From Pseudidiomarina andamanensis (GTDB lineage: Bacteria; Pseudomonadota; Gammaproteobacteria; Enterobacterales; Alteromonadaceae), in the NCBI RefSeq assembly GCF_009734345.1, contig NZ_CP032551.1:60001-92000 (forward strand): a stretch of DNA of 32,000 nt. Reading direction: 5' to 3'. How positions within the stretch are numbered: the first letter of the stretch is position 1; every line of letters starts with the position of its first letter. A program made the translations under genes and the position numbers. Positions 5,183 through 24,069 of this stretch are shown piece by piece. The notes under the pieces were generated by a model. The model worked only from the letters and a program-made list of their open reading frames with translations, was not told the DNA's origin and ran no database searches.

Positions 5183-5213
5183 GTAGACGAAAAACTACTT
5201 AAGTAATGAGTTG

Positions 5214-5247
5214 AAAGCCCTGCCGCACAATGGCAGGGCTTTTTTAT
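5214..5247 (+). terminator. Rho-independent terminator of the first TBDR gene.
   Basis: Stem aaagccctgcc / ggcagggcttt with a 7-nt loop, followed by a T-run (tttttattt). Confidence 0.8.
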
Positions 5248-5331
5248 TTATGGCTTAACCAATTGACCAAAAAAAGTTCCCTAAATGTGCAAAAAAAAAT
5301 CATATTTAACAACTTTTGTTCGTTAAGTAGG

Positions 5332-5360
5332 TTGCCGATATAGAATTTTTTGATTAGTAT
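5332..5360 (+). promoter_or_regulatory. Candidate sigma70 promoter for the second TBDR gene.
   Basis: TTGCCG (5332-5337), 17-nt spacer, TAGTAT (5355-5360), about 120 nt upstream of ATG 5481. By-eye match only. Confidence 0.3.
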
Positions 5361-8400: not shown

Positions 8401-9963
8401 ATGAGCGAGCAGTCACAGGTCACGAATATTCAAACAATAATTAATCATGTCACCAAGCTTTTGAAAGACGGCCAACCAGCTGAAGCATTAGCTTTTCTCG
8501 AGTCTTCACTAAAAAGCGAACCTCAGTCTGCGCCTTTGCTGCATTTGATTGCACAAGTGAAAAATAAACTGGGCGACATTTCCGGGGCGCTCGATTATTT
8601 GAACAAAGCAATTGAAATTCTTCCTGAGCACCTTGTGCTGCAAATTGATCGTTTGTATGTGCTTGAGCGGTTGCGACAGCGCGAAGCGCTCCACAAGGCA
8701 TTGGAGCAGGCTGAGCAGTTAGAACCTAGTAATCAAAAGTATCAACAACAGCTTGCACGTTTTTATACGCAACTTGATAAGCCAGAACGCGCGTTATCGA
8801 TCATCAAACGCCTACGTAAGCAACATGCCGACGATACCGTATTGATGTTCGATGAAGCGTTAAATACATGGTTTAGCGGTGAAGTTAAAGCGGCTGAAAA
8901 AATTACAGAGTCGGTATGCGCAAGTGAGCAGGCGCCATCGATGGCATTCTATGTACGCTCATTACTACGCAAACAAACCAAAGCACGCAACCATGTTGAC
9001 GATATGGCAGCACGCGCACGCAAAACAGAGGTGGCTGATACACCATTATGGTTTGCTTTAGCGAAAGAATATGATGATTTAGGCTTACATGAGTTGGCCG
9101 TTAATGCTGCCGAGGTTGGTAATGCATTACAAAAGAAGGTCACACCTTACAACGAAGCCGCAGAACTTGAAGCGCTGAAGCAGATACGCTTGGTAGCGAA
9201 TTCTTGGAAAGGCCAGGGGCGCGGCAACAAGAAAACTGATGTTACACCGGTGTTCATTGTCGGTATGCCAAATACCGGAGCTACCCTAGTAGAGCGTATG
9301 TTGTCGGTAAGCCCACAGGTGAAATCACTCGGCGAATTCGCTGATTTTCCGTTGTTGTTAAACCAAGCCATTGAGCGCTACGTAGCTGAAAACAGCACCG
9401 CAACGCGTGAGCAAGCCATCACCGAGTTGAATTACACTGAGCTCGGTAAAGCTTATTTAGCACAAATTTCCGAGGTAGCTGACGGCCATTCGTTTGTCAT
9501 CGATAAGCTGCCTTTCAACTTCTTATATTGTGGCATCATTCAGAAGGCACTACCGACTGCGAAGATTATTCATGTTTCTCGTGATTCTCTCGATACCTGT
9601 TGGTCAATTTATCGCTCGTTATATGCTGGTCGCTACGCTTATGCGTACAATCAAGCTGAACTGGGCCGTTACTATCGGCACTATCAAGACATTATGGAAG
9701 CTTGGCATCACGCGCTTGGTGAGCAGTTACTGAATGTGTCCTATGAACAGCTGGTTGCCAATACCGAAGCAACTCAAGCACAACTGTCGAGTTTCTGTGG
9801 TTTGCCGATTGAGAGCGACGAGAAGGTGATGGTTAATCAGGTGCCTAGCGTTTCAACTGCGCGTGGCGAGCCGATGATTACGAAGGTATATAAGCACGCA
9901 GTAGGACGTGCCAAACCTTATGCGGATTATCTGCAGGACCTTGTACAAGCTTTGAATGACTGA
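8401..9963 (+). CDS. TPR-repeat protein with a C-terminal PAPS-type sulfotransferase domain.
   Basis: The N-terminal ~270 aa are helical TPR-like. Then a 5'-PSB-like loop VFIVGMPNTGATLVERML and a 3'-PB-like HVSRDSLDTCWSIY. No signal peptide. Confidence 0.75.
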   Translation: MSEQSQVTNIQTIINHVTKLLKDGQPAEALAFLESSLKSEPQSAPLLHLIAQVKNKLGDISGALDYLNKAIEILPEHLVLQIDRLYVLERLRQREALHKALEQAEQLEPSNQKYQQQLARFYTQLDKPERALSIIKRLRKQHADDTVLMFDEALNTWFSGEVKAAEKITESVCASEQAPSMAFYVRSLLRKQTKARNHVDDMAARARKTEVADTPLWFALAKEYDDLGLHELAVNAAEVGNALQKKVTPYNEAAELEALKQIRLVANSWKGQGRGNKKTDVTPVFIVGMPNTGATLVERMLSVSPQVKSLGEFADFPLLLNQAIERYVAENSTATREQAITELNYTELGKAYLAQISEVADGHSFVIDKLPFNFLYCGIIQKALPTAKIIHVSRDSLDTCWSIYRSLYAGRYAYAYNQAELGRYYRHYQDIMEAWHHALGEQLLNVSYEQLVANTEATQAQLSSFCGLPIESDEKVMVNQVPSVSTARGEPMITKVYKHAVGRAKPYADYLQDLVQALND

Positions 9964-13126: not shown

Positions 13127-13203
13127 TGGCGTCTCCGGCAGGAGTCGAACCTGCGACCTGCCCCTTAGGAGGGGGCTGCTCTATCCAGCTGAGCTACGGA
13201 GAC
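13127..13203 (-). tRNA. tRNA-Arg (anticodon CCT).
   Basis: The reverse complement folds as a 77-nt cloverleaf: acceptor GTCTCCG/CGGAGAC, D arm GCTC..GAGC, anticodon stem GCCCC/GGGGC with loop CTCCTAA, T arm GCAGG TTCGACT CCTGC, encoded CCA. Confidence 0.95.
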
Positions 13204-13636: not shown

Positions 13637-13678
13637 CGTTATTGGTTATTAGTTATTCGTTATTAGTTATTGGTTGGT
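13637..13678. repeat. Heptamer array, left arm of pair A: 6 units of NGTTATT.
   Basis: cgttatt ggttatt agttatt cgttatt agttatt ggttggt, read directly. Confidence 0.9.
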
Positions 13679-13778
13679 GTATTGTAATTGATTGATTGAA
13701 TTCAACATGGAGGTTGATATGAAAGCTCGTTTAATCGTCAAAGAAATTGCTATTGAATTGTGAGTTTATGTCTATGAA

Positions 13779-14072
13779 TTGACTAAAGCGTTTCCATATG
13801 AAGAACGTTACGGTTTGAGTAGTCAAATTAGGCGGTGTGCTGTTAGCGTTCCGAGTAATATTGCTGAGGGAGCGAATAGGCATTCGATTAAGGATTTTCT
13901 TCGATTCTTGTACATAGCTAAAGGCTCGCTTTCAGAGCTTGAAACACAACTTACAATTGCTGTTCGCTTAGGTTATATCTCTGACTTTGCAAATGATTTA
14001 TTATCTCGTACGCTCATGCTTATAAATGCGCTGATAAAATCGCTCAAACTACGAGTAACGAATAACCAATAA
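13779..14072 (+). CDS. Four-helix-bundle protein of the '23S rRNA intervening-sequence protein' family (PF05635/TIGR02436-like). Probably N-terminally damaged, possibly a pseudogene.
   Basis: ERYGLSSQIRRCAVSVPSNIAEGANRHSIKDFLRFLYIAKGSLSELETQLTIAVRLGYI matches the family signature. The only in-frame start left is TTG 13779. An upstream in-frame ATG (13719) is cut off by TGA at 13761-13763. Confidence 0.6.
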   Translation: MTKAFPYEERYGLSSQIRRCAVSVPSNIAEGANRHSIKDFLRFLYIAKGSLSELETQLTIAVRLGYISDFANDLLSRTLMLINALIKSLKLRVTNNQ

Positions 14073-14088
14073 CGAATAACGAACAACG
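14054..14088. repeat. Heptamer array, right arm of pair A: 5 units of AATAACN.
   Basis: agtaacg aataacc aataacg aataacg aacaacg. This array encodes the last residues (RVTNNQ) and the stop of the four-helix-bundle ORF. Confidence 0.9.
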
Positions 14089-14096
14089 GGGTTCTC

Positions 14097-15638
14097 TTGT
14101 CAAAGTCCTTAACTAAATCCGGCATCATTGTCAGCTTCATGACACTCATCTCGCGTGTGCTTGGGCTTGTGCGCGATGTGGTGATTGCGAACTTGATGGG
14201 GGCTGGGGCGGCGGCCGATGTGTTCTTCTTTGCGAACAAGATACCGAACTTTCTGCGTCGATTGTTTGCGGAAGGGGCGTTTGCGCAGGCGTTTGTGCCG
14301 GTACTGACTGAGTATAAGCAAGGTAAGACGCTGGATGAGCAGCGTTTGTTGATTGCTCGGGTGGCGGGTACGTTGGGTACGTTGGTGACGGTTGTGACAC
14401 TGGTGGGAGTGGTTGCCTCGCCGGTGGTGGCGGCGATGTTTGGTACGGGTTGGTTTCTTGATTGGTATCACGATGGTCCGCAAGGGCATAAGTTTGTTTT
14501 GGCGGCCGACTTGCTGCGTATTACGTTTCCGTATTTGTGGTTTATTACCTTTACCGCCTTAGCCGGCGCGATTTTAAATACGATTGGTAAGTTCGCGGTG
14601 GCGGCGTTTACGCCGGTATTTTTGAATATTGCGATTATTGTTTTCGCGATATGGCTTGGGCCGCAACTTGATCAACCCGAATATGCGCTAGCATGGGGTG
14701 TGTTTGTTGGTGGTGCCGTACAGTTCTTATTTCAAATTCCGTTTTTGAAGCGGGCAGGGTTATTGGTTCGTCCGCGATGGGGATGGCGAGACCCTGGCGT
14801 CACTAAAATCCGCACGTTAATGATTCCTGCCTTATTTGGGGTGTCGGTTAGTCAGATTAACCTACTATTGGATACGTTTATTGCATCGTTTTTAATGAGT
14901 GGTTCAATTAGCTGGTTATATTACTCCGACCGGTTATTGGAATTTCCGTTGGGATTATTTGGCATTGCGATTGCGACCGTTATTTTGCCAGCGTTAAGCT
15001 CACGTCATGTGGACAAGTCAGCCGAAGAGTTCAGCCGTACGTTGGATTGGGGTATTCGTACGGTTGTATTGCTTGGATTACCAGCCATGTGCGGTTTGAT
15101 TGTGCTTGCGGAGCCGATGCTGATGGTGTTGTTCATGCGCGGTGAATTCACGCCTGAAGATGCGCGCTTGGCCTCTTATAGTTTGTTTGCGTATGGCTCG
15201 GGCTTACTGAGTTTCATGTTGGTGAAGGTATTGGCGACTGGATTCTATTCACGCCAAGATACCAAGCGACCCGTGAAGTACGGCATTATCGCCATGATTT
15301 CAAACATGGTGTTCAATATCATTTTCGCGATTCCTTATGGTTATGTCGGTTTAGCCATTGCAACGTCTCTTTCTGCCGCTGTTAACGCCGGTTTGTTGGG
15401 CTATAACCTGTGGCGCGACGGTGTGCTCAAACGTTATCCCGGGACACTAACTTATCTCACCAAAGTAGCGCTATCTGTGGCCGCGATGGTTGCGGTGGTG
15501 TTCTATCTTGTACCTGCTCGATCGTGGTGGCTTGCGGCTGAATTTGTTGATCGAGCGTGCCAGTTGGCGTTGCTAATTGGCGCTGGGGCGGGAACGTATT
15601 TGCTGTCCCTCCTCCTTCTTCGCGTGAAAGTTCGTTAA
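14097..15638 (+). CDS. murJ: Lipid II flippase MurJ (MviN).
   Basis: SGIIVSFMTLISRVLGLVRDVVIANLMGAGAAADVFFFANKIPNFLRRLFAEGAFAQAFVPVL is the conserved MurJ N-terminus. Polytopic membrane protein, 513 aa, TTG start. Confidence 0.93.
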   Translation: MSKSLTKSGIIVSFMTLISRVLGLVRDVVIANLMGAGAAADVFFFANKIPNFLRRLFAEGAFAQAFVPVLTEYKQGKTLDEQRLLIARVAGTLGTLVTVVTLVGVVASPVVAAMFGTGWFLDWYHDGPQGHKFVLAADLLRITFPYLWFITFTALAGAILNTIGKFAVAAFTPVFLNIAIIVFAIWLGPQLDQPEYALAWGVFVGGAVQFLFQIPFLKRAGLLVRPRWGWRDPGVTKIRTLMIPALFGVSVSQINLLLDTFIASFLMSGSISWLYYSDRLLEFPLGLFGIAIATVILPALSSRHVDKSAEEFSRTLDWGIRTVVLLGLPAMCGLIVLAEPMLMVLFMRGEFTPEDARLASYSLFAYGSGLLSFMLVKVLATGFYSRQDTKRPVKYGIIAMISNMVFNIIFAIPYGYVGLAIATSLSAAVNAGLLGYNLWRDGVLKRYPGTLTYLTKVALSVAAMVAVVFYLVPARSWWLAAEFVDRACQLALLIGAGAGTYLLSLLLLRVKVR

Positions 15639-15684
15639 TCGTTAATCGTTAATCGTTATTCGTTATTGGTTATTGGTTGTTCGT
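15633..15684. repeat. Heptamer array, left arm of pair B: about 7.5 units.
   Basis: cgttaat x3, cgttatt x2, ggttatt, ggttgtt, cgt. The murJ last codon and its TAA stop (15636-15638) lie inside the first unit. Confidence 0.9.
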
Positions 15685-15739
15685 AAAAGCAAAAACGGTA
15701 CTTGTTGTTAAGGCTTGGGTTGAGGGAGAGGGGGCTGGC

Positions 15740-16828
15740 ATGGGGCGGATCATAAATATATTTGTGGCATTTATGTTGGTGCTTGGGCTGCTTAGTTGTC
15801 AGGTACCGGATAGTGAGACTAAGGCGTCGGTAATTGATGAAAGCAGCCAAGAGATTCCTCATTCCTTTGTAATGGCTGAGCAATCTGAGTTACCAGAGCA
15901 TTCGCGTTTGGTCGAAACTTCCGCAGGACAATTTCATGTTCGTGCGATGGGGCTCAATAATCCCGGTCCAGCAGTGATTTTGCTAGCAGGGCCTAATTAC
16001 AATTACCACAGTGATAGCGCTTGGTTTGCTGCGCTCCAACCGCTATTGGCAGAGCAATATCGGGTGTACAGTGTTGATCGCCTTGGTAATGCGTTCAGCA
16101 GTAGTAGTGATGATTTGTCTTACCGTCGTTTTGCTGACGATTTGGCATTAGTGATGCAGCAGCTGGATGAGCCTAATTTGACTGTGGTGGCCTTTGCTAG
16201 CGCGAGTATTAGTGCACGTTGGTTCTATGAGCTGCATGGCGAGCAGTTTGATATTCAAGCCATGCTGTATATTGATCCGGATATTCCATTGGCGCATTCA
16301 TTGAGCTTGTATCAGGGCTATCCAGCTAACTGGTATCGAGATAATTTAGCGACGTTATTGCCGCATTTGGCTGCTGGCAATTGGACCGAACGAACCAAAG
16401 ACAAACTCGATGCGGAATATCAACAGATCAGACAATGGGCTGGTGAATATGGTACCGCCGTCGACTGGCGTTACTTGGAGCAAATCATGCAACAACGTTT
16501 GTTGATTTCGCATCAGCAAGCCAGAGCTCTTGAAATTGCTGCATATATTGCTGATTTAGACGGCTACGCGACGTTGCCCATGATAACCGCAATACCCGTC
16601 AGTGTGATTGACAGCGATTTTGAGCAGCAGGATATCGCCGCTGCGGCTGATGATGCTGAGCTATTAGCTGCGTTGCAAAAATGGCAGCAGGAAGGGAGTA
16701 CTTGGAGTGTCAATCAGGCTGCAGTGTCTAATGGCCAATATATTCCTCTAACTGGAAGCGACCACATGGTTCCATTACAACAACCACAAATCATCCAACA
16801 TGCTTTAGAGTGGCTCCTCAACCAATAG
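15740..16828 (+). CDS. Predicted lipoprotein with an alpha/beta-hydrolase-like fold.
   Basis: GGAGAGGGGG Shine-Dalgarno before ATG 15740. Signal peptide with lipobox VLGLLS-C. Fold hallmarks: AVILLAGPN, RVYSVDRLGNAFSS, variant nucleophile elbow VVAFASASIS (S-x-S-x-S rather than G-x-S-x-G), and C-terminal GSDHMVPLQQP. The longer ORF from 15677 reads through the repeat array and is less likely. Confidence 0.6.
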   Translation: MGRIINIFVAFMLVLGLLSCQVPDSETKASVIDESSQEIPHSFVMAEQSELPEHSRLVETSAGQFHVRAMGLNNPGPAVILLAGPNYNYHSDSAWFAALQPLLAEQYRVYSVDRLGNAFSSSSDDLSYRRFADDLALVMQQLDEPNLTVVAFASASISARWFYELHGEQFDIQAMLYIDPDIPLAHSLSLYQGYPANWYRDNLATLLPHLAAGNWTERTKDKLDAEYQQIRQWAGEYGTAVDWRYLEQIMQQRLLISHQQARALEIAAYIADLDGYATLPMITAIPVSVIDSDFEQQDIAAAADDAELLAALQKWQQEGSTWSVNQAAVSNGQYIPLTGSDHMVPLQQPQIIQHALEWLLNQ

Positions 16829-16850
16829 CTCTCTCGCTCGCGCTTTTTCG

Positions 16851-16878
16851 AATAACGAATAACCAATAACCAATAACG
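16851..16878. repeat. Heptamer array, right arm of pair B: 4 units.
   Basis: aataacg aataacc aataacc aataacg, followed by ctttt. Confidence 0.9.
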
Positions 16879-16981
16879 CTTTTCGCGCAGGTCTATATTT
16901 GGTCTTTATTTGGGCTTTACCGCCATTCTCGTCTAATCTTACTCCTGAAATCACCAACAAGGAGTAATAGCCATTTATACC

Positions 16982-17251
16982 GTGAAACGACCGCGCGTGA
17001 CCACTGTGTCAGGGTTTAAGAAAGAAATTGCCACCATGGATGTGAATGAACCGGTTTTGGTGACCCAGAACGGTGAACCGCTGTATGTGGTGCAAGACCC
17101 TGCCCAATACGAAGCCATGCAAGAGCAGATGGCGATGTTGAAAATGATTGCACTGGCTGAAAAGGATGTTCGGGCTGGTCGTGTTGTGAGCCGAGAAGAG
17201 CTCTTCAAAGGATTGGCAGAGGAGCTCGGCGCAGATGACGATCTCAATTGA
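16982..17251 (+). CDS. Phd/YefM-like type II antitoxin.
   Basis: 89 aa. VSGFKKEIATMDVNEPVLVTQNGEPLYVVQDPAQYEAM fits the Phd/YefM N-terminal pattern, and the tail is acidic. It overlaps the downstream toxin-like ORF by 17 nt. The GTG start is uncertain. Confidence 0.6.
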   Translation: MKRPRVTTVSGFKKEIATMDVNEPVLVTQNGEPLYVVQDPAQYEAMQEQMAMLKMIALAEKDVRAGRVVSREELFKGLAEELGADDDLN

Positions 17252-17582
17252 TTATACGAGCCATTTCAAATCCCAAGCTCGTAACCAAGTAAGGTTTCTT
17301 ATAAAAAAAGTGGGGTATCGATTAGCACAACAATTCGTTGATAGCGTACTTGACCAATTTGAACAAAAAGTTTTGATGTTTCCCCAACGATGCGCTCGAT
17401 GTTCAGAAAGTGCAGAAGTAGGTTTTGGACAATATTACGAATTTATTGATACAAAGACGCAGGTTCGGATTATTTATCGGCTTGCCGAGGGAGATGATTC
17501 GCATATATCGGCCCTGTTATTTGTGCGAACAAGACAAGATTTGCGTGATCAGCTTTTTCAGCTGGTATTAATGAGCCCTTAG
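17235..17582 (+). CDS. RelE/ParE-superfamily toxin (ParE-like).
   Basis: 115 aa, small and basic, translationally coupled to the antitoxin. ...YYEFIDTKTQVRIIYRLAEGDDSHISALLFVRTRQD resembles the ParE C-terminal pattern. Weak motif-level call. Confidence 0.55.
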   Translation: MTISIDYTSHFKSQARNQVRFLIKKVGYRLAQQFVDSVLDQFEQKVLMFPQRCARCSESAEVGFGQYYEFIDTKTQVRIIYRLAEGDDSHISALLFVRTRQDLRDQLFQLVLMSP

Positions 17583-17606
17583 TGTCTGGTTAGCGTTTGG
17601 CGAGCC

Positions 17607-17615
17607 TGCTATAAT
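17607..17615 (+). promoter_or_regulatory. Candidate extended -10 promoter for ribF.
   Basis: TGCTATAAT (TGnTATAAT) about 50 nt upstream of ATG 17664. No good -35. Confidence 0.3.
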
Positions 17616-17663
17616 CGCCGCTTTGTTAATCACCTGAAATAACGACAGGCTTGCTACGCACTG

Positions 17664-18596
17664 ATGCAGTTAATTCGCGGAATCCATAATATTCGACCTA
17701 AGCACCGTGGGTGTGTCCTTACTATTGGCAACTTTGATGGTGTTCATTTGGGCCATCAAGCGGTGTTGGCGCAAGTAAAAGCACAGGCACTTGCTCGTAG
17801 TGTTCCAGCGACGGTGATGACCTTTGAGCCGCAACCGCAAGAGCTGTTTCAGCCTGATAAAGCACCGGCGCGATTAACGAATTTTCGTGAAAAGCACATG
17901 GCGCTGCGCGAGCAGGGTATCGACCGCCATATTGTCATTGAGTTTAATCGCAAATTTTCTAATTTGCCGGCGCGCGAGTTTATCGAGCGAGTGCTGGTTG
18001 AGATGCTCGGTGTGCAATTTTTGGTGGTCGGCGATGATTTTCGTTTCGGCCACGGTCGCGAAGGTGATTTCGCGATGTTGCAACGCGCTGGCGCAGAGCT
18101 GGGCTTCGAGGTGGTTGATACGCAGAGTTACCGTCAACAACAGCAACGTGTTAGCAGTACTGCGATACGTCAGTGCTTAAGTGATGGCGATTTTACCCAA
18201 GCAGCAGCTATGCTTGGTCGGCCGTATGCATTTCAAGGGCGCGTGGTGCATGGTGAGAAAAAAGGCCGTACTATCGGTTTTCCAACCGCAAATATTCAGT
18301 TAAAACGGTTGCATTCGCCGCTTCAGGGCGTATTTGCTGTGCAGGTACAATGCAATGATGGCAAAATGCATGCAGGCGTTGCTAATATTGGCAGACGGCC
18401 AACATTGAATGGTGAGCGAGTGCAGCTAGAGGTGCATTTGTTCGATTTTGCGGGCGATTTATATGGGCAGCAGTTGCGGGTGGTGCCAACGCACTTTATT
18501 CGCGCGGAGCAGAAGTTTGCTGATTTTGCGCAGCTGCAGCAACAAATCGCCGCCGACGCTGAAAAGGCAAAGGCGTTACTCGTTATTGGTTATTAG
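17664..18596 (+). CDS. ribF: Bifunctional riboflavin kinase / FMN adenylyltransferase.
   Basis: MQLIRGIHNIRPKHRGCVLTIGNFDGVHLGHQAVL and GRTIGFPTANI motifs. 310 aa. Confidence 0.96.
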   Translation: MQLIRGIHNIRPKHRGCVLTIGNFDGVHLGHQAVLAQVKAQALARSVPATVMTFEPQPQELFQPDKAPARLTNFREKHMALREQGIDRHIVIEFNRKFSNLPAREFIERVLVEMLGVQFLVVGDDFRFGHGREGDFAMLQRAGAELGFEVVDTQSYRQQQQRVSSTAIRQCLSDGDFTQAAAMLGRPYAFQGRVVHGEKKGRTIGFPTANIQLKRLHSPLQGVFAVQVQCNDGKMHAGVANIGRRPTLNGERVQLEVHLFDFAGDLYGQQLRVVPTHFIRAEQKFADFAQLQQQIAADAEKAKALLVIGY

Positions 18597-18645
18597 TTAA
18601 TCGTTAAAACCAAACATGAACGACGAATAACGAATAACGCTTTTT
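18574..18645. repeat. Heptamer-array pair C: left 18574-18605, 13-nt loop, right 18619-18639, then a T-run. Likely an imperfect hairpin/terminator-like element between ribF and ileS.
   Basis: cgttact cgttatt ggttatt agttaat cgtt / aacgacg aataacg aataacg + cttttt. The last 7 codons of ribF and its TAG stop are inside the left arm. Confidence 0.85.
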
Positions 18646-18706
18646 AAATTCAAAAATTGAAATAAGTTATGGGGCAGATAACACCCCCGAAAAAGGAACC
18701 GAAATA

Positions 18707-21559
18707 ATGACCGACTACAAACACACACTGAATCTGCCGGAAACTGAGTTTCCGATGCGCGGTAATTTGGCGCAGCGTGAGCCGCAGATGTTGCAACAGT
18801 GGTACACAGATGACGTGTACGGCCTTATTCGCCAAGCGAAGGCGGGTCAGCCGGTGTTTATTTTGCATGATGGCCCTCCTTATGCGAACGGTGATATTCA
18901 CATTGGTCACGCAGTGAATAAGATTTTGAAAGACATGATTGTGAAAGCGAAAACGCTGAGCGATTTTGATGCGCCTTATGTGCCTGGTTGGGATTGTCAT
19001 GGCTTGCCAATTGAGCTGCAAGTTGAGAAGAAACATGGCAAGCCAGGTAAGAAACTCAGTGTGGCTGAGTTCCGTCAAAAATGCCGTGAGTATGCACTCA
19101 CTCAGGTAGACGGTCAGCGTGAAGACTTTAAACGTTTGGGTGTGTTTGGTGATTGGGATAACCCTTATTTGACCATGAACCCGAAACAAGAAGCTGACAG
19201 TATTCGCGCGCTTGCAAAAATCATTGCCAATGGTCACATGCAACAAGGCTTTAAGCCGGTGCATTGGTGTACCGATTGTGGTTCTGCTCTAGCTGAAGCG
19301 GAAGTTGAGTATCAAGATAAGCGTTCACCAGCTATCGATGTTGGCTTTACGCCAGTGAACGAAAGTGAGTTGGTGGGTAAGTTTGATCACCCAGCAGGTC
19401 ATACTGGCGAAGGCGAGGTGATGGTTGTGATTTGGACCACCACGCCGTGGACTATTCCAGCAAACCGTGCCATTTCGTTGCATCCGAGCCTTGATTATAC
19501 GTTGGTTCAGGTTGAGGCGACGGATGAGCGCCCTGCCATGCGTTTGGTACTTGCTGATGAATTAGTGAAATCAGCCATGGAACGCTGGGGTATTGATGCT
19601 TATCACAAGCTTGGCTTCGCAAAAGGTGAAGCGCTTGAAAATGTGAAAGTGAATCATCCGTTATTTGCGGATGTTCAGGTGCCACTTATTCTTGGTGAGC
19701 ACGTAACCACTGATTCTGGTACGGGCTGTGTGCACACGGCACCAGGCCACGGTGTCGATGACTTTATTGTTGGTCAGCGTTACGGCATTGAAGTGTATAA
19801 CCCAGTTGGCGATAACGGTGTGTATAAAGACGATACGCCGATGTTTGCTGGTCAGCACGTGATGAAGGCGAACCCGAATATTGTTGATGCGCTGCAAGAA
19901 GCTGGGCGATTGATCCATCACGAAGCGTATAACCACTCGTACCCACATTGCTGGCGCCACAAAACGCCAATTATTTTCCGTGCCACTCCGCAGTGGTTTA
20001 TCAGTATGGATAAGCAAGGTTTGCGCGCCAAAGCATTAGAGCAAATTAAACAAGTGCGTTGGGTGCCAGAGTGGGGGCAAAGCCGCATCGAAAGCATGGT
20101 TGATGGTCGTCCTGACTGGTGTATTTCACGTCAACGCACGTGGGGTAACCCGATTGCCGTGTTTGTGCGTCGTGACACGGACGAATTGCATCCACGCACG
20201 CTGGAACTGATGGAAGAAGTCGCAAAACGTGTTGAAAAAGATGGCATTCAGGCGTGGTTCGATTTAGAACCAGAAGAGTTATTAGGCGATGAAGCCGTTG
20301 ATTACCGTAAAGTGACTGACACCTTAGACGTGTGGTTCGATTCAGGTGTGACACACGAAGCCGTTTTGAATAAAACGCCAGGCTTGCAGTGGCCAGCAGA
20401 TTTGTATCTTGAAGGTTCTGACCAACACCGTGGTTGGTTCCAATCATCTTTGTTGACTGGTGTGGCGATGTATCAACAAGCACCATATAAGCAAGTGCTA
20501 ACGCATGGTTTCACGGTTGATGGGCAAGGCCGCAAAATGTCGAAATCAATCGGCAACGTCATTGCGCCGCTTGAGGTAATGAACAAGTTAGGCGGTGATA
20601 TCTTACGTTTGTGGGTTGCGGCAACGGATTATTCGGGCGAAATGACGGTTTCTGATGAAATCTTGAAGCGTTCCGCTGATAGCTACCGTCGTATTCGTAA
20701 TACCTCACGTTTCTTGTTAGCGAACATTAACGAGTTTGAGCCAAGCAAACACGCTGTTGCTGCCGACGATATGGTTGCGATTGATAAGTGGATTGTTGCG
20801 CGTGCTGTTAGTTTACAAGAAGAGATTCTAAAAGCGTTAGACGGCTACCAATTCCACGGCGTGGTGCAAAAAATTATGCACTTCTGCTCAATTGAGTTAG
20901 GTAGCTTCTACTTAGACGTGATTAAAGACCGTCAGTACACGGCAAAACGTGACAGTGTCGCGCGTCGTTCATGTCAGACTGCGTTGTATCACATTGCTGA
21001 AATGTTGGTACGCTGGTTGGCGCCTATTTGTAGTTTTACCGCACAAGAAATCTGGGATGCATTGCCGAAGCAGCTCGCCAATGGTGAAGCGCGTTCGCGT
21101 TATGTGTTTACCGAGAGTTGGTATCGCGAAGCGGCGCAAATTAGCGTGAGTCCAGCCGATAACGCCTTGTGGCAAACGGTGCTTGAGGTACGTGATGAAG
21201 TGAATCGTACGCTTGAGCAAGCGCGCCGTGATGATGTAATTGGCGGCAGCTTACAAGCCGAAGTGACTGTTTATGCGGTGGCCGACATTGCCGCACAACT
21301 ATCTAGTCTTGAGGACGAGTTGCGTTTTGCCTTTATTACGTCTGCTGTTGCCGTTGAAACGGTTGAGACGGCACCTGCAGGGGCTGTTGCAACAGAACTT
21401 GACGGCGTTTGGGTAAAAGTAGCGAAATCGGCCTACGAAAAATGCGAGCGCTGTTGGCATCACCGTGCAGAGGTTGGCACCATTGCGAGCCACCCGACGC
21501 TATGCCAACGCTGTGTAACAAACGTTGATGGAGCCGGAGAGGAGCGCCATTTTGCTTAA
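18707..21559 (+). CDS. ileS: Isoleucine--tRNA ligase.
   Basis: HIGH motif ([14 protein letters not shown]), KMSKS motif, C-terminal zinc-finger cysteines (CERCWHH ... CQRC). 950 aa. Confidence 0.98.
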
Positions 21560-22061
21560 GCCAACTGATTTACAAAAGCGCGCCAGTGGGTTGCGCTTTT
21601 TGTGGTTAACCTTGCTGCTTATTGTTCTGGATCAATTTACCAAGCAATGGGTGATTCGTGTTTTCGATTTATACGAAAGCATTGAGGTGATGCCCTATTT
21701 AAATTTGACCTACGTGCGTAACATGGGCGCCGCCTTCAGCTTCTTGAGCGATCAAGGCGGCTGGCAGCGCTGGTTATTCACGTTTTTAGCGATAGCCGTT
21801 AGTGTGGTTCTGCTAATTTGGCTGCGCCGTAACCCGGCCAATATGTGGCGTCAAAATCTTGCCTTTGCGCTGATTCTGGCGGGTGCGATTGGTAATGTTA
21901 TCGACCGTATAATATATGGTTACGTTATTGATTTTATTGATGTATATGTGAATGAGTGGCACTGGCCGGCATTTAATGTTGCCGATATGGCTATAACTAT
22001 CGGTGCAGTTCTTATGCTATTAGAGGCGTTTTTTGAACAACGCCAGGAGCCACAGTCATGA
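21525..22061 (+). CDS. lspA: Lipoprotein signal peptidase (signal peptidase II).
   Basis: [34 protein letters not shown] and [12 protein letters not shown] motifs. The start is uncertain: ATG 21525 gives the longest ORF, but TTG 21552 sits 7 nt after a GGAGAGGAG Shine-Dalgarno. Confidence 0.9.
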
Positions 22062-22498
22062 TCAGTCGTCTCCCGATCGAGCACGGTCGCGAAGTGATTT
22101 TGCATTTCACCATCAAGTTAACCGATGATTCGGTTGCTGACAGTACTAAAATGTCAGGTAAACCAGCAAAGTTCCGTATGGGCGATGGCTCCTTAACGGA
22201 GAACTTTGAGTCGTGTTTGGTTGGTTTAAAAGCTGGCGATGCCCGCGAGTTTGAACTGGCACCAGAAGACGCTTTTGGTATGCCGAATAAAGATAACTAT
22301 TATCAGGTAGATACCACCAAGTTCGGTGCAGATCGCCCTGAAGTTGGCCAAATTTTTACGTTTCCACAGCCTGATGGCACGGAGTTACCCGGTATTGTGC
22401 GGGCAATTAATGATCAGTTTGTGACGATTGATTTTAATCATCCGTTGGCTGGCCAGCGGGTGCGATTTGCCGTCGAAATTATTGAGGTAAATCCTTAA
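22058..22498 (+). CDS. fkpB: FKBP-type peptidyl-prolyl cis-trans isomerase (FkpB/SlpA-like).
   Basis: ATGA overlap with lspA. VILHFTIKLTDDSVADST ... GKPAKFRMGDGSL ... PGIVRAINDQFVTIDFNHPLAGQRVRFAVEIIEV parallels E. coli FkpB. Confidence 0.88.
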   Translation: MISRLPIEHGREVILHFTIKLTDDSVADSTKMSGKPAKFRMGDGSLTENFESCLVGLKAGDAREFELAPEDAFGMPNKDNYYQVDTTKFGADRPEVGQIFTFPQPDGTELPGIVRAINDQFVTIDFNHPLAGQRVRFAVEIIEVNP

Positions 22499-22501
22499 AA
22501 A

Positions 22502-22573
22502 CGTTACTCGTTAGTCGTTACTCGTTATTCGAAAAGGACAACACGAATAACTAATAACGAACAACGAACAACG
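22502..22573. repeat. Heptamer-array pair D: left 22502-22531, 12-nt loop, right 22544-22573, between fkpB and ispH.
   Basis: cgttact cgttagt cgttact cgttatt cg / cg aataact aataacg aacaacg aacaacg. It ends 14 nt before the ispH ATG. Confidence 0.9.
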
Positions 22574-22587
22574 AAGTTGGAGTTTTT

Positions 22588-23529
22588 ATGAATATTGTTT
22601 TGGCGAATCCGCGTGGTTTTTGTGCCGGTGTTGACCGAGCGATTACTATAGTCGAGCGCGCATTAGAAATTTTTGAACCACCTATTTATGTGCGCCATGA
22701 AGTAGTACATAACAAATACGTGGTGGATTCGTTGCGCGCGCGCGGTGCTGTGTTTGTTGATGAGCTGCATGAAGTGCCTGACGATAGCATTGTGATTTTT
22801 TCTGCGCACGGGGTGTCGCAAGCGGTTCGCCAAGAGGCAAAAGACCGTGGTTTGCGAGTATTTGACGCAACCTGCCCGCTGGTGACCAAGGTGCATATGG
22901 AAGTGACGCGTGCAAGTCGCAAGGGGCATGAGTGTGTGCTGATTGGTCATGCGGGGCACCCGGAAGTAGAAGGCACCATGGGGCAGTACAATAACCCGAA
23001 AGGTGGAATCTACCTGGTGGAATCGGTTGACGATGTCGCAAAACTTGAGGTGAAAGATCCGAAACAATTGCACTACATGAGCCAAACCACGTTGTCGGTT
23101 GATGATACGGCTGACGTGATTGATGCGTTGCGTGACAAATTCCCAGAAGTGCAGGGGCCGCGCAAAGATGATATCTGTTATGCCACGCAAAACCGTCAAG
23201 ACGCCGTACGCGAGCTCGCTGCTGAAGTGGATGTGCTGCTGGTTGTTGGCGCGCGTAATAGCTCGAATTCAAATCGCTTACGTGAATTAGCTGAAAAAAT
23301 GGGTACGCCTGCGTACTTGATTGATGATGCTTCTTGCATTGATCAAGCGTGGCTCGATGGCAAAGAAAATGTCGGTGTGACTGCGGGGGCGTCAGCGCCG
23401 GAAGTTCTGGTTCGTGATGTGGTGAAAAAGCTGCAATCGTGGGGTGGAGAGACGGTTCAAGAGCGCAGCGGGCGCGAAGAAAATATCACTTTTTCTATCC
23501 CCCCAGAACTCCGCGTCGTTGAACTGTAA
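22588..23529 (+). CDS. ispH: 4-hydroxy-3-methylbut-2-enyl diphosphate reductase.
   Basis: [37 protein letters not shown], and SSNSNRL motifs. 313 aa. Confidence 0.97.
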
Positions 23530-23532
23530 AAC

Positions 23533-23682
23533 CGTTGTTCGTTATTCGTTATTTGTTATTCGTTAAATATCAAAAAATCTCCGTGTGCATAGGTTATATG
23601 TACAACGGAGATTTTCAGTTTTTAGTGCTTCGTGTTTTGCTTTTTCGAATAACGAATAACTAATAACGAATAACCAATAACG
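23533..23682. repeat. Heptamer-array pair E: left 23533-23564, right 23646-23682, enclosing an 81-nt loop that itself contains a terminator hairpin.
   Basis: cgttgtt cgttatt cgttatt tgttatt cgtt ... cg aataacg aataact aataacg aataacc aataacg. Confidence 0.9.
23574..23625. terminator. Bidirectional rho-independent terminator between the convergent ispH and pilE genes.
   Basis: aaaatctccgt (23574-23584) pairs with acggagatttt (23605-23615). T-runs follow on both strands (ttttcagttttt on plus, ttttttgat on minus). Confidence 0.7.
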
Positions 23683-23685
23683 GTT

Positions 23686-24069
23686 TTACTGCCAACAGGT
23701 GGTGGGGGTTTTTTGGTCGTTCTGATTAATGCTCATTGTGGCACATTCTGTATCAGAAACCTGCGCACCTTTCGCTGTAGCCGTTAATGTATAGGTCTCG
23801 GCGCCAAGGTTCGACACACTAAAAGTGTAAAATTCGCTTGACGATGTAAAGCCAAGATCAGCTATTGTGGCATAGCTGGTATTGCGTAATCGATACTCTT
23901 CTTGGGCCATCTGTAATTTCATCAATTCGCCCATGGCGTCTGCTCTGCGGCTCTGTTTGACGTAGTCAGTAAAGTTCGGATATGCAATGGCTGCAATGAT
24001 GCCGATAATTGCTACGACAATCATCAATTCAATCAGGGTCATGCCGGATAACTTTTTTTCAACTTGCAT
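23686..24069 (-). CDS. pilE: Type IV pilin, PilE-like.
   Basis: Prepilin leader MQVEKKLSG / [37 protein letters not shown]-terminal Cys pair (C..TTC). +1 is Met rather than Phe. Confidence 0.8.

Follow-up and report, generated by a model that had tools for sequence, protein, structure and literature searches.

Several described bacterial systems resemble the repeats analyzed here, each in part. Intervening sequences (IVSs) of 23S rRNA, known from Leptospira and Coxiella burnetii, carry an S23p (PF05635) ORF in a loop closed by a long stem of terminal inverted repeats, and in the Coxiella IVS the tandem GACAGAT heptamers at the 5′ end are the site cut by RNase III (PMC4990558). REP and REPIN sequences with their RAYT genes are multicopy short extragenic palindromes right behind genes; their doublets fold into hairpins, and a single protein gene lies between inverted repeat copies. 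MITEs are non-coding elements of 80–160 bp with terminal inverted repeats, nested insertions, and presence/absence polymorphism.

Short tandem units have also been reported. The G-rich GGGAATC unit of Xanthomonas, which has been studied as a G-quadruplex former, occurs in about 186 intergenic arrays of about four heptamers, including 70–75 convergent pairs per genome (Rehm et al. 2015, PMC4692102). Whether a repeat is a single array or an inverted pair is, as a rule, conserved among species, while array length varies; no S23p or mobile-element reading was made (PMC4692102). Geobacter metallireducens carries tens of species-specific opposite-strand site pairs, of 3–5 tandem 7- to 9-nt units at variable distance, between operon genes such as proBA (Aklujkar et al. 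2009, PMC2700814). The STRR and TAACTGA repeats of Cyanobacteria and Bacteroidota are intergenic tandem heptamers (MacGregor 2015, PMC4679880), but they are direct repeats lying mostly right upstream of start codons, and only one inverted case has been reported, in BOGUAY (PMC4679880).

The window (the whole 32-kb stretch of DNA analyzed here) holds five inverted pairs of GTTATT-type heptamer arrays, elements 1 to 5. Element 1 has exactly the anatomy of the Coxiella rRNA IVS but is placed in an mRNA leader, between rpsT and murJ rather than in helix 25/45 of 23S rRNA, and its family, unlike the IVS, has ORF-less copies at mRNA intergenic junctions. The family shares the REP/REPIN traits given above, and in sister strains GTAG-type REPs occupy the same junctions; however, its arms are AT-rich tandem heptamers starting with CG, not GTAG, and its gene encodes a four-helix-bundle Avd homologue instead of an HUH tyrosine transposase such as RAYT. 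It also has the listed features of MITEs, but lacks a target-site duplication, parent IS, or transposase, and its terminal inverted repeats are internally repetitive. As in G. metallireducens, opposite-strand pairs of short tandem units lie between operon genes, although the Geobacter units are partly 8–9 nt and have been interpreted as IHF/HU or regulator sites. The Xanthomonas arrays are likewise gammaproteobacterial, form inverted pairs, and include one at an S23p gene, XCC0516 (PMC4692102). The initial annotation knew of no description of paired inverted heptamer arrays of this sequence in a gammaproteobacterium. Taken as a statement on the class, this is wrong; for the GTTATT-type unit and its genus, no description was found in the literature searched.

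Results

All ten arrays of the five (NGTTATT)n…(AATAACN)n pairs in the initial annotation were recovered at the same positions, and a scan of the whole window found none beyond them, as it had claimed. The two-unit pattern GTTATTNGTTATT (at most 1 mismatch) matched 29 times in 32 kb, every time within the ten arrays, against 0.27 ± 0.57 matches in 100 dinucleotide-preserving shuffles. Tandem heptamers make up the arms, which sets them apart from classical REP/BIME sequences, and the arms pair on folding, both as described before; the folding z-scores were −4.1 for element 3, −2.8 (+ strand) and −5.3 (− strand) for element 4, and −11.6 for element 5. Pfam supported S20, MurJ, RibF, FKBP, and LytB/IspH, while the presumed pilE encodes a ComP_DUS-type pilin. 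Arrays had been placed at nearly every junction; they occur at several, but ileS/lspA, lspA/fkpB, and toxin/ribF have none. The argument that the T-rich arm comes first in the sense of the transcripts is uninformative, because the architecture is strand-symmetric and (NGTTATT)n…(AATAACN)n reads identically on either strand. A genuine preference does exist, in that this arm order is favored and (AATAACN)n…(NGTTATT)n is not.

Two of the five loops carry genes, as noted earlier. The 5′ arm of element 1 (13637–13678; CGTTATT, GGTTATT, AGTTATT, CGTTATT, AGTTATT, GGTTGG) is partnered by a 3′ arm at 14054–14088 (AGTAACG, AATAACC, AATAACG, AATAACG, AACAACG), with the murJ start 8 nt downstream of its end; the S23p pseudogene (13719–14072, + strand) lies in its loop. 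The murJ stop codon TAA falls within the first unit of the element 2 5′ arm (15633–15684; three CGTTAAT, two CGTTATT, GGTTATT, GGTTGTT). The cargo of this element is a 362-aa alpha/beta hydrolase (15741–16828, + strand; Pfam Abhydrolase_6/1), followed by the 3′ arm at 16851–16878 (AATAACG, AATAACC, AATAACC, AATAACG). The RibF coding sequence, like that of MurJ, terminates within an array: its C-terminus …ALLVIGY* is encoded at 18574–18596, the ORF end, in the element 3 5′ arm (18574–18605). The 3′ arm of element 3 (18619–18639) is followed by GCTTTTT. Element 4 begins 3 nt past the fkpB stop (5′ arm, 22502–22531), and the ispH start lies 14 nt beyond the end of its 3′ arm (22544–22573). The element 5 5′ arm (23533–23564) begins 3 nt past the ispH stop, and the palindrome reaches through this stop codon (TAAAAC/CG...); its 3′ arm (23646–23682) ends 3 nt short of the stop codon of the convergent pilin gene. 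A separate near-perfect hairpin flanked by A and T runs (23572–23615) lies in the element 5 loop and belongs to the insertion, since empty orthologous sites have no more than 5–6 nt from one stop codon to the other.

The main lead had been overlooked: the gene in the first loop encodes S23p, the IVS protein, also known as a four-helix-bundle, 23S_rRNA_IVP, or Avd-like protein (PF05635, E = 6e-30; TIGR02436). It matches PDB 2GSC (XCC0516) with an E value of 3e-27 and, in PHROG, "Avd protein of DGR". The window allele is inactivated by a premature TGA at codon 15 (TGT to TGA, 13761–13763); the allele of the relative L167 differs from it by codon 15 and is intact, with 117 aa. The last S23p codons (..RVTNNQ*) are encoded by the element 1 3′ arm. 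The other window copies have the same arms and are ORF-less or carry other cargo.

The arrays are a REP/MITE-like family of extragenic palindromes of Pseudidiomarina/Idiomarina clade II, and the earlier view of a true repeat family whose inverted architecture is constant is borne out. In order, an element comprises a short outer flank rich in A, about 4–8 tandem heptamers that form the 5′ arm, the loop, and a second arm that is the reverse complement of the first. Copies are dispersed and nested and all are intergenic, with the array starting 9–12 nt past the upstream stop codon in 20 of 31. Exact arms number about 670 per Mb in the block versus no more than 8 per Mb on large contigs, so that copies are about 80-fold denser beside the S23p gene. 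A sister type with GATATT arms was found at 40 metagenome loci, where nearly all of about 100 arms are in the 5′-arm…3′-arm arrangement; the arm is a nearly identical 28- to 31-nt sequence over dozens of loci, and the outer flanks and the loops (20–60 nt, motif GATGTWTCGGG) are conserved. The 5′ arm has more G than C in 25 of 28 lineages. GTTATT arrays were also detected by scanning in Cyanobacteria and Bacteroidota, and the GTTATT hairpins of other phyla are 5′-arm first in 28 cases versus 2 opposite. No target-site duplication was seen at GATATT loci or at the filled and empty ispH/pilin sites, and no transposase or other enzyme was linked to the elements. We know of no catalytic activity of S23p.

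At the rpsT/murJ site there are three S23p alleles, and every allele has a distinct arm type: GTTATT in the window, L164, and L167; GATATT in L001, L163, and L166; and a third type in L168 and L209. Their S23p proteins are about 50% identical and the flanks 94–99% identical. Within the genomes of the window, P. atlantica, L001, P. salilacus, and AZIJ01, one arm type is common to the S23p copy and the ORF-less hairpins. A comparison of orthologous junctions, proposed earlier as a check, revealed presence/absence polymorphism at ispH/pilin, which is empty in L176, L206, and P. atlantica and filled by the GTTATT type in the window, the GATATT type in L208, and a GTAG-REP in L001. GTAG-type REPs also replace arrays at further junctions in close relatives. 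The hydrolase of element 2 is absent from L001, P. atlantica, and P. salilacus, and in L002 it is flanked by GATATT-type arms. Hairpins are present at murJ/ribF, ribF/ileS, and fkpB/ispH in all Pseudidiomarina examined, but these fixed junctions change between the GTTATT, GATATT, and third types. Element 4 (fkpB/ispH), for instance, is identical in the same-species contigs L003/4/7/8, and other arm types occupy its site in L010, L001, and L002/5/6/9. The murJ-to-ribF gap of a more distant relative is 61 bp and has no hairpin. Unit number differs among strains (4 versus 2 AATAACG in L209/L210; 11 units in P. atlantica), and unbalanced copies (three 5′ arms and one 3′ arm) are kept between strains.

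The initial annotation had also offered a role as intra-operon RNA hairpins, but no signal of selection on the RNA stem was found by folding bias or compensatory pairing. Sense and antisense folding did not differ (n = 19; 12 versus 7, means −36.56 versus −36.57 kcal/mol, p = 0.71), and arms were complementary to their own partner at 25.3 of 28 positions versus 25.1 for the partner of another copy. Within the stem, mismatches are frequent at the first base of each unit, which varies, and a simple terminator scan did not call the hairpins.

Inverted period-7 flanks were found at 59–72% of 32 unrelated S23p loci from IMG/VR versus 2–4% of 137 control ORFs. The heptamer is lineage-specific, with about 15 different units among the 32 loci. 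Additional isolates agree with this pattern, and arrays of the same unit were also found near S23p loci. XCC0516, the Xanthomonas S23p with a solved crystal structure, has a GGGAATC array overlapping its start. This case and the published Coxiella IVS, with its S23p gene, inverted-repeat stem, and RNase III-cut heptamers (PMC4990558), fit the pattern; the link between S23p and heptamer arrays was not found in the literature searched.

Discussion

We suggest, with a probability of roughly 0.6, that the arrays are a palindrome family in the niche of REPs and MITEs, in which one copy encloses S23p and ORF-less or other-cargo copies share its arms. Among the roles offered by the initial annotation, the best fit is a non-autonomous mobile element of which the arrays are remnants or landing pads, because the copies are dispersed and nested, orthologous sites are empty or filled, and loops hold cargo. 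S23p might recognize its cognate arms, and by analogy with RAYT/REPIN the gene and the hairpins might form a system of master copy and derivatives. The 80-fold density beside the S23p gene suggests that spread would be mostly local. When transcribed, the 25- to 40-bp stems may act as RNase III substrates, by analogy with the Coxiella S23p IVS, or as 3′-end barriers, which would allow an element to reside in an operon or rRNA without destroying the host sequence. Some observations speak against mobility, including the absence of a linked transposase or other enzyme and of target-site duplications. Arm type does not always agree with S23p type: L163 combines a GATATT S23p with a GTTATT arm at the hydrolase, and L216 a GTTATT S23p with GATATT arms after murJ. 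The conservation of unbalanced copies between strains is a poor fit to a simple model in which the whole hairpin moves, and turnover among close strains could reflect homologous recombination of the flanks after DNA uptake instead of transposition.

The presence of hairpins at murJ/ribF, ribF/ileS, and fkpB/ispH in every Pseudidiomarina examined could mean host function and not selfish spread. The hairpins would then be host-selected intercistronic structures that process, stabilize, or terminate the murJ-ribF-ileS-lspA-fkpB-ispH transcripts, the sequence drifting or homogenizing as long as the stem stays. Conserved position with sequence turnover, long stable stems, and A-rich and T-rich outer flanks that look like bidirectional terminators agree with this, and REPs stabilize upstream mRNA. 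We nevertheless consider this explanation unlikely, since the sense strand has no folding advantage (p = 0.71), compensatory pairing is absent within elements (25.3 versus 25.1 of 28), the first base of the unit varies and is often mismatched, and the terminator scan did not call the hairpins. Moreover, ispH/pilin is empty in three relatives, the 61-bp murJ-to-ribF gap of the distant relative lacks a hairpin, unrelated GTAG-REPs stand in at the same sites, and the S23p link would be left unexplained. Iteron-like arrays, serving as inverted double-stranded DNA sites for a nucleoid-associated or global regulator other than S23p, have a precedent in the heptad iterons bound by the pSM19035 omega repressor. 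Each arm looks like an independent draw from a consensus and not like half of a co-evolving stem, hybrid and unbalanced arm combinations occur, and the Geobacter pairs, similar in build and variable spacing, have been interpreted as sites of IHF/HU or a global regulator (PMC2700814). However, the copies follow stop codons instead of lying at promoters, the same sites are occupied interchangeably by three unrelated element families, and units that differ at the same junction in close strains would be incompatible with a conserved host regulator, which makes this improbable.

A function as uptake sequences for natural transformation, in strain-specific dialects, is brought to mind by the ComP_DUS-type pilin gene adjoining element 5, by inverted pairs right downstream of genes as in Neisseria and Haemophilus, and by the strain-specific sequence types. 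DUS and USS occur roughly once per kb, and the density outside the block (8 exact arms per Mb or fewer) is far too low. Because PF16732 also matches many ordinary minor pilins, and the S23p association across phyla and the tandem-heptamer build would stay unexplained, we give this idea very little weight. Replication slippage, producing unrelated arrays that pair by chance, has still less: heptamers are the commonest class of long simple sequence repeats in bacteria (PMC4692102, PMC4679880) and unit number does vary among strains (L209/L210, P. atlantica), but unpaired, randomly oriented noise is already refuted by 29 matches versus 0.27 expected, by the single arrangement of all five window pairs, and by the conserved flanks and loops and nearly identical arms of the GATATT sister type.

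The pairing of S23p with heptamer arrays is recurrent across many phyla, and it may explain both the S23p family and the heptamer repeats of bacteria.

Results

Ten heptamer arrays were found in the window exactly where the initial annotation had placed them, forming five inverted pairs with arms of the form (NGTTATT)n and (AATAACN)n: element 1 (13637-13678/14054-14088), element 2 (15633-15684/16851-16878), element 3 (18574-18605/18619-18639), element 4 (22502-22531/22544-22573), and element 5 (23533-23564/23646-23682). The two-unit pattern GTTATTNGTTATT, with at most one mismatch, matches 29 times in the window, and all 29 matches lie inside arrays, compared with 0.27 ± 0.57 expected from dinucleotide-preserving shuffles. 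This excludes chance simple-sequence noise; the paired arrays are real and far above chance. Runs of three or more units are absent from the remainder of the 32 kb, as had been claimed, and the pairing of the arms is borne out by folding z-scores of −4.1 for element 3, −2.8 on the plus and −5.3 on the minus strand for element 4, and −11.6 for element 5. The elements have terminal inverted repeats that give a long, AT-rich stem of 25 to 40 bp, with loops of 12 to 1166 nt. All five are located between protein-coding genes, in a block that encodes, according to Pfam, S20, MurJ (then the hydrolase, a Phd/YefM antitoxin, and a toxin-like ORF), RibF, IleS, LspA, an FKBP, IspH, and a ComP_DUS-type pilin, and the reading frames of RibF and MurJ terminate within arrays. 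The statement that nearly every junction of the block carries an array goes too far, as several have none. Nor does the T-rich-first order reflect the sense of transcription: (NGTTATT)n...(AATAACN)n reads identically on either strand, so the arrangement is uninformative on that point. An Rfam gathering scan of the window returned one tRNA and nothing else, with no rRNA, so the arrays match no catalogued RNA family. The tRNA gene (13130-13203, minus strand, 66.6 bits) lies between a TPR/2OG-oxygenase gene and rpsT. A consensus terminator and promoter scan called none of the five elements; some have a T-rich 3′ flank.

Loop 1 contains a gene for S23p, the Avd-like "23S rRNA intervening-sequence protein" (PF05635, E 6e-30; TIGR02436 "four helix bundle protein"). 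Its product has matches to the crystal structure of the Xanthomonas protein XCC0516 (2GSC, E 3e-27) and, in PHROG, to the family "Avd protein of DGR." In the window, codon 15 (13761-13763) has changed from TGT to TGA, whereas the gene is intact (117 amino acids) in L167, a contig with 99.6% identity. Because the L167 allele is intact, this "master" S23p gene is, judged from its sequence, dead in the present strain, where the four hairpins of elements 2 to 5, which have no S23p ORF, persist. Loop 2 encodes an alpha/beta hydrolase of 362 amino acids, and loop 5 contains a further, independent hairpin that is almost perfect and has runs of A and T. The stretch 15685-17582, comprising the hydrolase in its hairpin loop and a Phd/YefM antitoxin gene (16982-17251), is a gain of this lineage; P. 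atlantica, P. salilacus, and contig L165 lack it, with ribF directly following murJ. The antitoxin gene is overlapped by a 115-amino-acid ORF with no family match (17235-17582). In a more distant relative, ribF starts 61 bp after murJ, and the hairpin, the hydrolase, and the toxin-antitoxin pair are all missing. The 3′ end of the hydrolase gene retains ..CCAATAGCT, a fragment of a GATATT-type arm, while its present arms are of the GTTATT type. In a PADLOC search, neither S23p nor the hydrolase nor the toxin-like ORF matched a defence system. The pilin gene adjoining element 5 (23686-24069, minus strand) matches PF16732 (ComP, the DNA-uptake-sequence receptor; E 4e-23), which is suggestive of natural competence; competence could drive exchange of cassettes between strains.

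The contigs with an identical FkpB or S20 protein belong to Idiomarina clade II (Pseudidiomarina); one of them, L163, is I. tainanensis PIN1 (PMC6193092), and the named S23p homologues are from Pseudidiomarina species. At the equivalent junctions in L001, a sister species with 83 to 90% nucleotide identity, the inverted arms read CGATATT AGCTATT GGATATT AGATATT, in some cases with one pair nested inside another. In P. atlantica the hairpins at rpsT|murJ, murJ|ribF, ribF|ileS, and fkpB|ispH are of the GTTATT type, and a third arm type is found in P. salilacus. The GTTATT type was seen at four to five junctions in two species, that of the window and P. atlantica. Arm type varies even within the species, as at fkpB|ispH and rpsT|murJ. 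At fkpB|ispH, where the flanking gene is 99% identical, the hairpin of the window is present in L003, L004, L007, and L008 and the GATATT type in L010; the third type is found in L002, L005, L006, and L009, and the flank of L005 is 98.3% identical to that of L010 and about 93% to that of the window. Three alternative S23p cassettes, each with an arm type of its own, occur at rpsT|murJ; their S23p proteins are only about 50% identical, compared with 94 to 99% for the flanks. Two genomes, L163 and L216, carry mixed types. Unit number differs between P. salilacus contigs at about 2860-2925, where the 3′ arm of the S23p cassette has four AATAACG units in L209 versus two in L210, and reaches 11 in P. 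atlantica (L218:10348-10424). The 5′ arms of the P. salilacus and P. atlantica cassettes are mosaic, with CGATATT CGCTATT... at their left side and AATAACG at their right.

Presence/absence polymorphism between relatives, which the initial annotation had proposed to look for, was seen at the convergent ispH|pilin junction. This junction is empty in L176, L206, and P. atlantica (TAA, 5 to 6 nt, TTA), filled by a GTTATT element in the window and a GATATT element in L208, and occupied in L001 by a GTAG-type REP with four 40-bp repeats. In one strain, GTAG-type palindromes (GTAGCCCGGCG...CGCCGGGCTAC) stand precisely at the sites of GATATT hairpins in two relatives. These ends define a second palindromic family of classical GTAG-type REP appearance, located at the same post-stop-codon junctions in sister strains. 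Its copies include L001:11570-11800, enclosing the four tandem 40-bp repeats, and three on the reverse strand of L202 (about 3780-3925, 4944-5015, and 9006-9174); one 72-nt copy in L202, a multiple of three, lies within sequence that is coding in L177.

One scan of metagenome contigs with the GATATT arm as the query yielded 40 loci with about 100 arms, almost all in 5′-arm...3′-arm pairs with loops of 20 to 60 nt, some nested or unbalanced. The copies share an A-rich outer flank of about 12 nt (..AAAAnCAAnnG) and a loop motif, GATGTWTCGGG, in either orientation. They are intergenic without exception; 20 of 31 arrays begin 9 to 12 nt after the upstream stop codon, which is often supplied by the element itself. 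Exact arms reach at most 8 per Mb in large contigs versus about 670 per Mb in the block adjoining S23p. Neither the GATATT copies nor the comparison of empty and filled ispH|pilin sites revealed a target-site duplication, and the element flanks are inverted complements (CAAnnG/CnnTTG), not direct repeats. Three tandem 5′ arms with a period of about 41 nt precede a single 3′ arm at L177:384-547 and L183:5311-5473, an unbalanced arrangement kept between strains about 81% identical at the locus and also seen after murJ in L216 (7510-7673). L173:836-899 is a hybrid of a GATATT 5′ arm and a CGTTAAT-type 3′ arm, and in L203 (1561-1642) a GATATT hairpin adjoins what appears by eye to be the 3′ end of a tRNA.

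At three operon junctions the position of the hairpin is conserved across the genus, which keeps a function for the host alive as a rival explanation. For 19 copies between co-directional genes, folding was no stronger in sense than in antisense, with mean energies of −36.56 and −36.57 kcal/mol (12 versus 7 copies; p = 0.71). Arms matched their own partner at 25.3 of 28 positions and the partner of another copy at 25.1, a comparison of limited power, given how nearly perfect the stems are; 244 of 2000 shuffles reached the observed own-partner complementarity, and mismatches frequently fall on the first base of each unit. As there is no excess complementarity to the own partner, the stem looks like a by-product of two inverted consensus arrays and not a structure maintained by compensatory change.

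The association of S23p with inverted heptamer arrays extends across phyla, and the sequence of the unit is lineage specific. An IMG/VR scan with an S23p alignment gave 32 loci, at which inverted repeats of 7-nt period occurred within about 100 bp of 59 to 72% of S23p genes versus 2 to 4% of control ORFs (137 ORFs of the same loci). About 15 units were recognized, including AGGGTGT, AGAAGGC, AGTGGAG, ACGTTCA, CAGTTGC, and GGTAAGA; the exceptions were one lineage with a period of 8 and one family with direct arrays. Direct AATTGGG arrays (2431-2454 and 3536-3558; L139-L141, L162) lie 1.1 kb apart and enclose S23p and about 700 bp. Arrays of the S23p-flanking unit often recur a few kilobases away. 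In 25 of 28 lineages, G outnumbers C in the 5′ arm (mean skew +0.60). A Vreelandella isolate has GGTGAGT arms and two S23p cassettes in one polysaccharide operon; in Vreelandella sp. GE22 these (L212:2501-2851 and 5051-5351) carry different S23p genes 2.2 kb apart in a polysaccharide-biosynthesis operon. Degenerate heptamers adjoin S23p in a Carboxylicivirga isolate. S23p genes lie within sugar-nucleotide operons in Carboxylicivirga and Alkalimonas, the latter (L214:2370-2500 and 2840-2990) flanked on both sides by arrays of CTAG mini-hairpins of about 23 nt that have GGT(A/C)ACTAG in common, with no heptamers. A GTTATTNGTTATTNGTTATT scan of genome contigs found at least 120 loci, with the source genus not among the matches listed. 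Among those listed, GTTATT arrays are widespread (Cyanobacteria, Bacteroidota, Desulfobacterales, CPR, and others), and pairs with loops of up to 110 nt are 5′-arm-first in 28 cases versus 2 in the opposite order. S23p lay near only 2 of the 120 listed loci (inside the pair in L071, adjacent in L027). The link is therefore one-directional: S23p points to arrays, but an array does not always point to S23p.

Discussion

The elements constitute a family of palindromes whose arms are built of heptamers and whose copies are dispersed, nested, and polymorphic for insertion; the family fills the REP niche behind stop codons. Like REPs and REPINs, they are short dispersed extragenic palindromes in many copies. 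However, REPs have a conserved GTAG 5′ end, whereas the arms of the window and its sisters begin with CGTTATT or CGATATT, and REPINs flank a RAYT (HUH Y1 transposase) gene, whereas the gene flanked here is S23p and the window contains no RAYT gene. Terminal inverted repeats and a small non-coding size recall MITEs, but the target-site duplication of MITEs is absent from this family, and no insertion sequence with these ends was present among the loci retrieved. The elements do not fit an intrinsic terminator, with its short G+C-rich stem, loop of 3 to 8 nt, and U tract directly after. DNA uptake sequences are single short motifs, favored in uptake, that occur about once per kb throughout a genome, far more densely than the at most 8 exact sister-type arms per Mb of large contigs, a density that speaks against this reading. 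Integron attC-type cassettes were rejected because there is no integrase and the arms flank the cargo instead of following it, and CRISPR-like arrays because there are no spacers.

Paired inverted heptamer arrays are known as a class, as are extragenic palindromes and IVSs. Xanthomonas campestris has about 186 GGGAATC arrays, 70 of them convergent pairs (PMC4692102), and Geobacter metallireducens has tens of paired sites of tandem 7- to 9-mers, read as regulator sites (PMC2700814). The Xanthomonas pattern of intergenic convergent pairs of about four heptamers, many per genome, is shared by the present arrays, but its unit is G-rich and G-quadruplex capable, whereas NGTTATT has no G runs. In the authors' table, GGGAATC array #15 covers the start of XCC0516, the S23p of the solved structure (PMC4692102). 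The S23p-type IVS resembles element 1 in its S23p ORF and terminal-inverted-repeat stem, but such an IVS interrupts 23S rRNA at helix 25 or 45, whereas the elements of the window lie elsewhere. [quoted passage not shown] Earlier papers noted S23p genes lying between cas genes and within insertions in CPR rRNA. The literature searched contained nothing direct on this unit, on Idiomarina repeats, or on S23p tied to heptamer palindromes; the apparent novelty lies in the unit, in the genus, and most of all in the tie to S23p.

To our knowledge, S23p has a crystal structure but no known function. By analogy with RAYT and REPIN, S23p/four-helix-bundle (Avd-like) proteins and tandem-heptamer palindromes could be one widespread two-part system, a tentative reading to which we assign a probability of about 0.3. 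S23p would recognize its own arms, a RAYT/REPIN-like relationship in which the pentamer might bind about four to six cognate heptamers of its flanking arms. The elements would spread mainly locally, the arms multiplying as ORF-less hairpins behind stop codons and also entering rRNA helices, there to appear as IVSs. Once transcribed, the stems may serve as RNase III substrates or as barriers to exonucleases, and this would account for their being tolerated inside operons and rRNA. A simple S23p-arm model is opposed by the lack of a linked enzyme and of a target-site duplication, by the mixed types of L163 and L216, and by the unbalanced arm sets conserved between strains. If the link reflects only cargo capture, this is an ordinary REP-like family of unusual build.

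A caution for annotation is that the elements can supply the C-termini and stop codons of essential genes (RibF, MurJ) and that, in small marine genomes, turnover is concentrated at operon junctions. Tandem heptamers are the commonest long simple repeats in bacteria and have been reported piecemeal from cyanobacteria, Xanthomonas, Geobacter, and Beggiatoaceae. The two-part system, if true, would account for such repeats (STRR, GGGAATC, and TAACTGA-like arrays) and give a first function to the S23p family, of which over 7,800 homologues can be detected. From the S23p link one would expect a recognition code between protein and nucleic acid that is sequence specific, uses one heptamer per lineage, and is readable from genomes. 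If it holds, the S23p family, the heptamer repeats, and the origin of rRNA IVSs become one testable problem.
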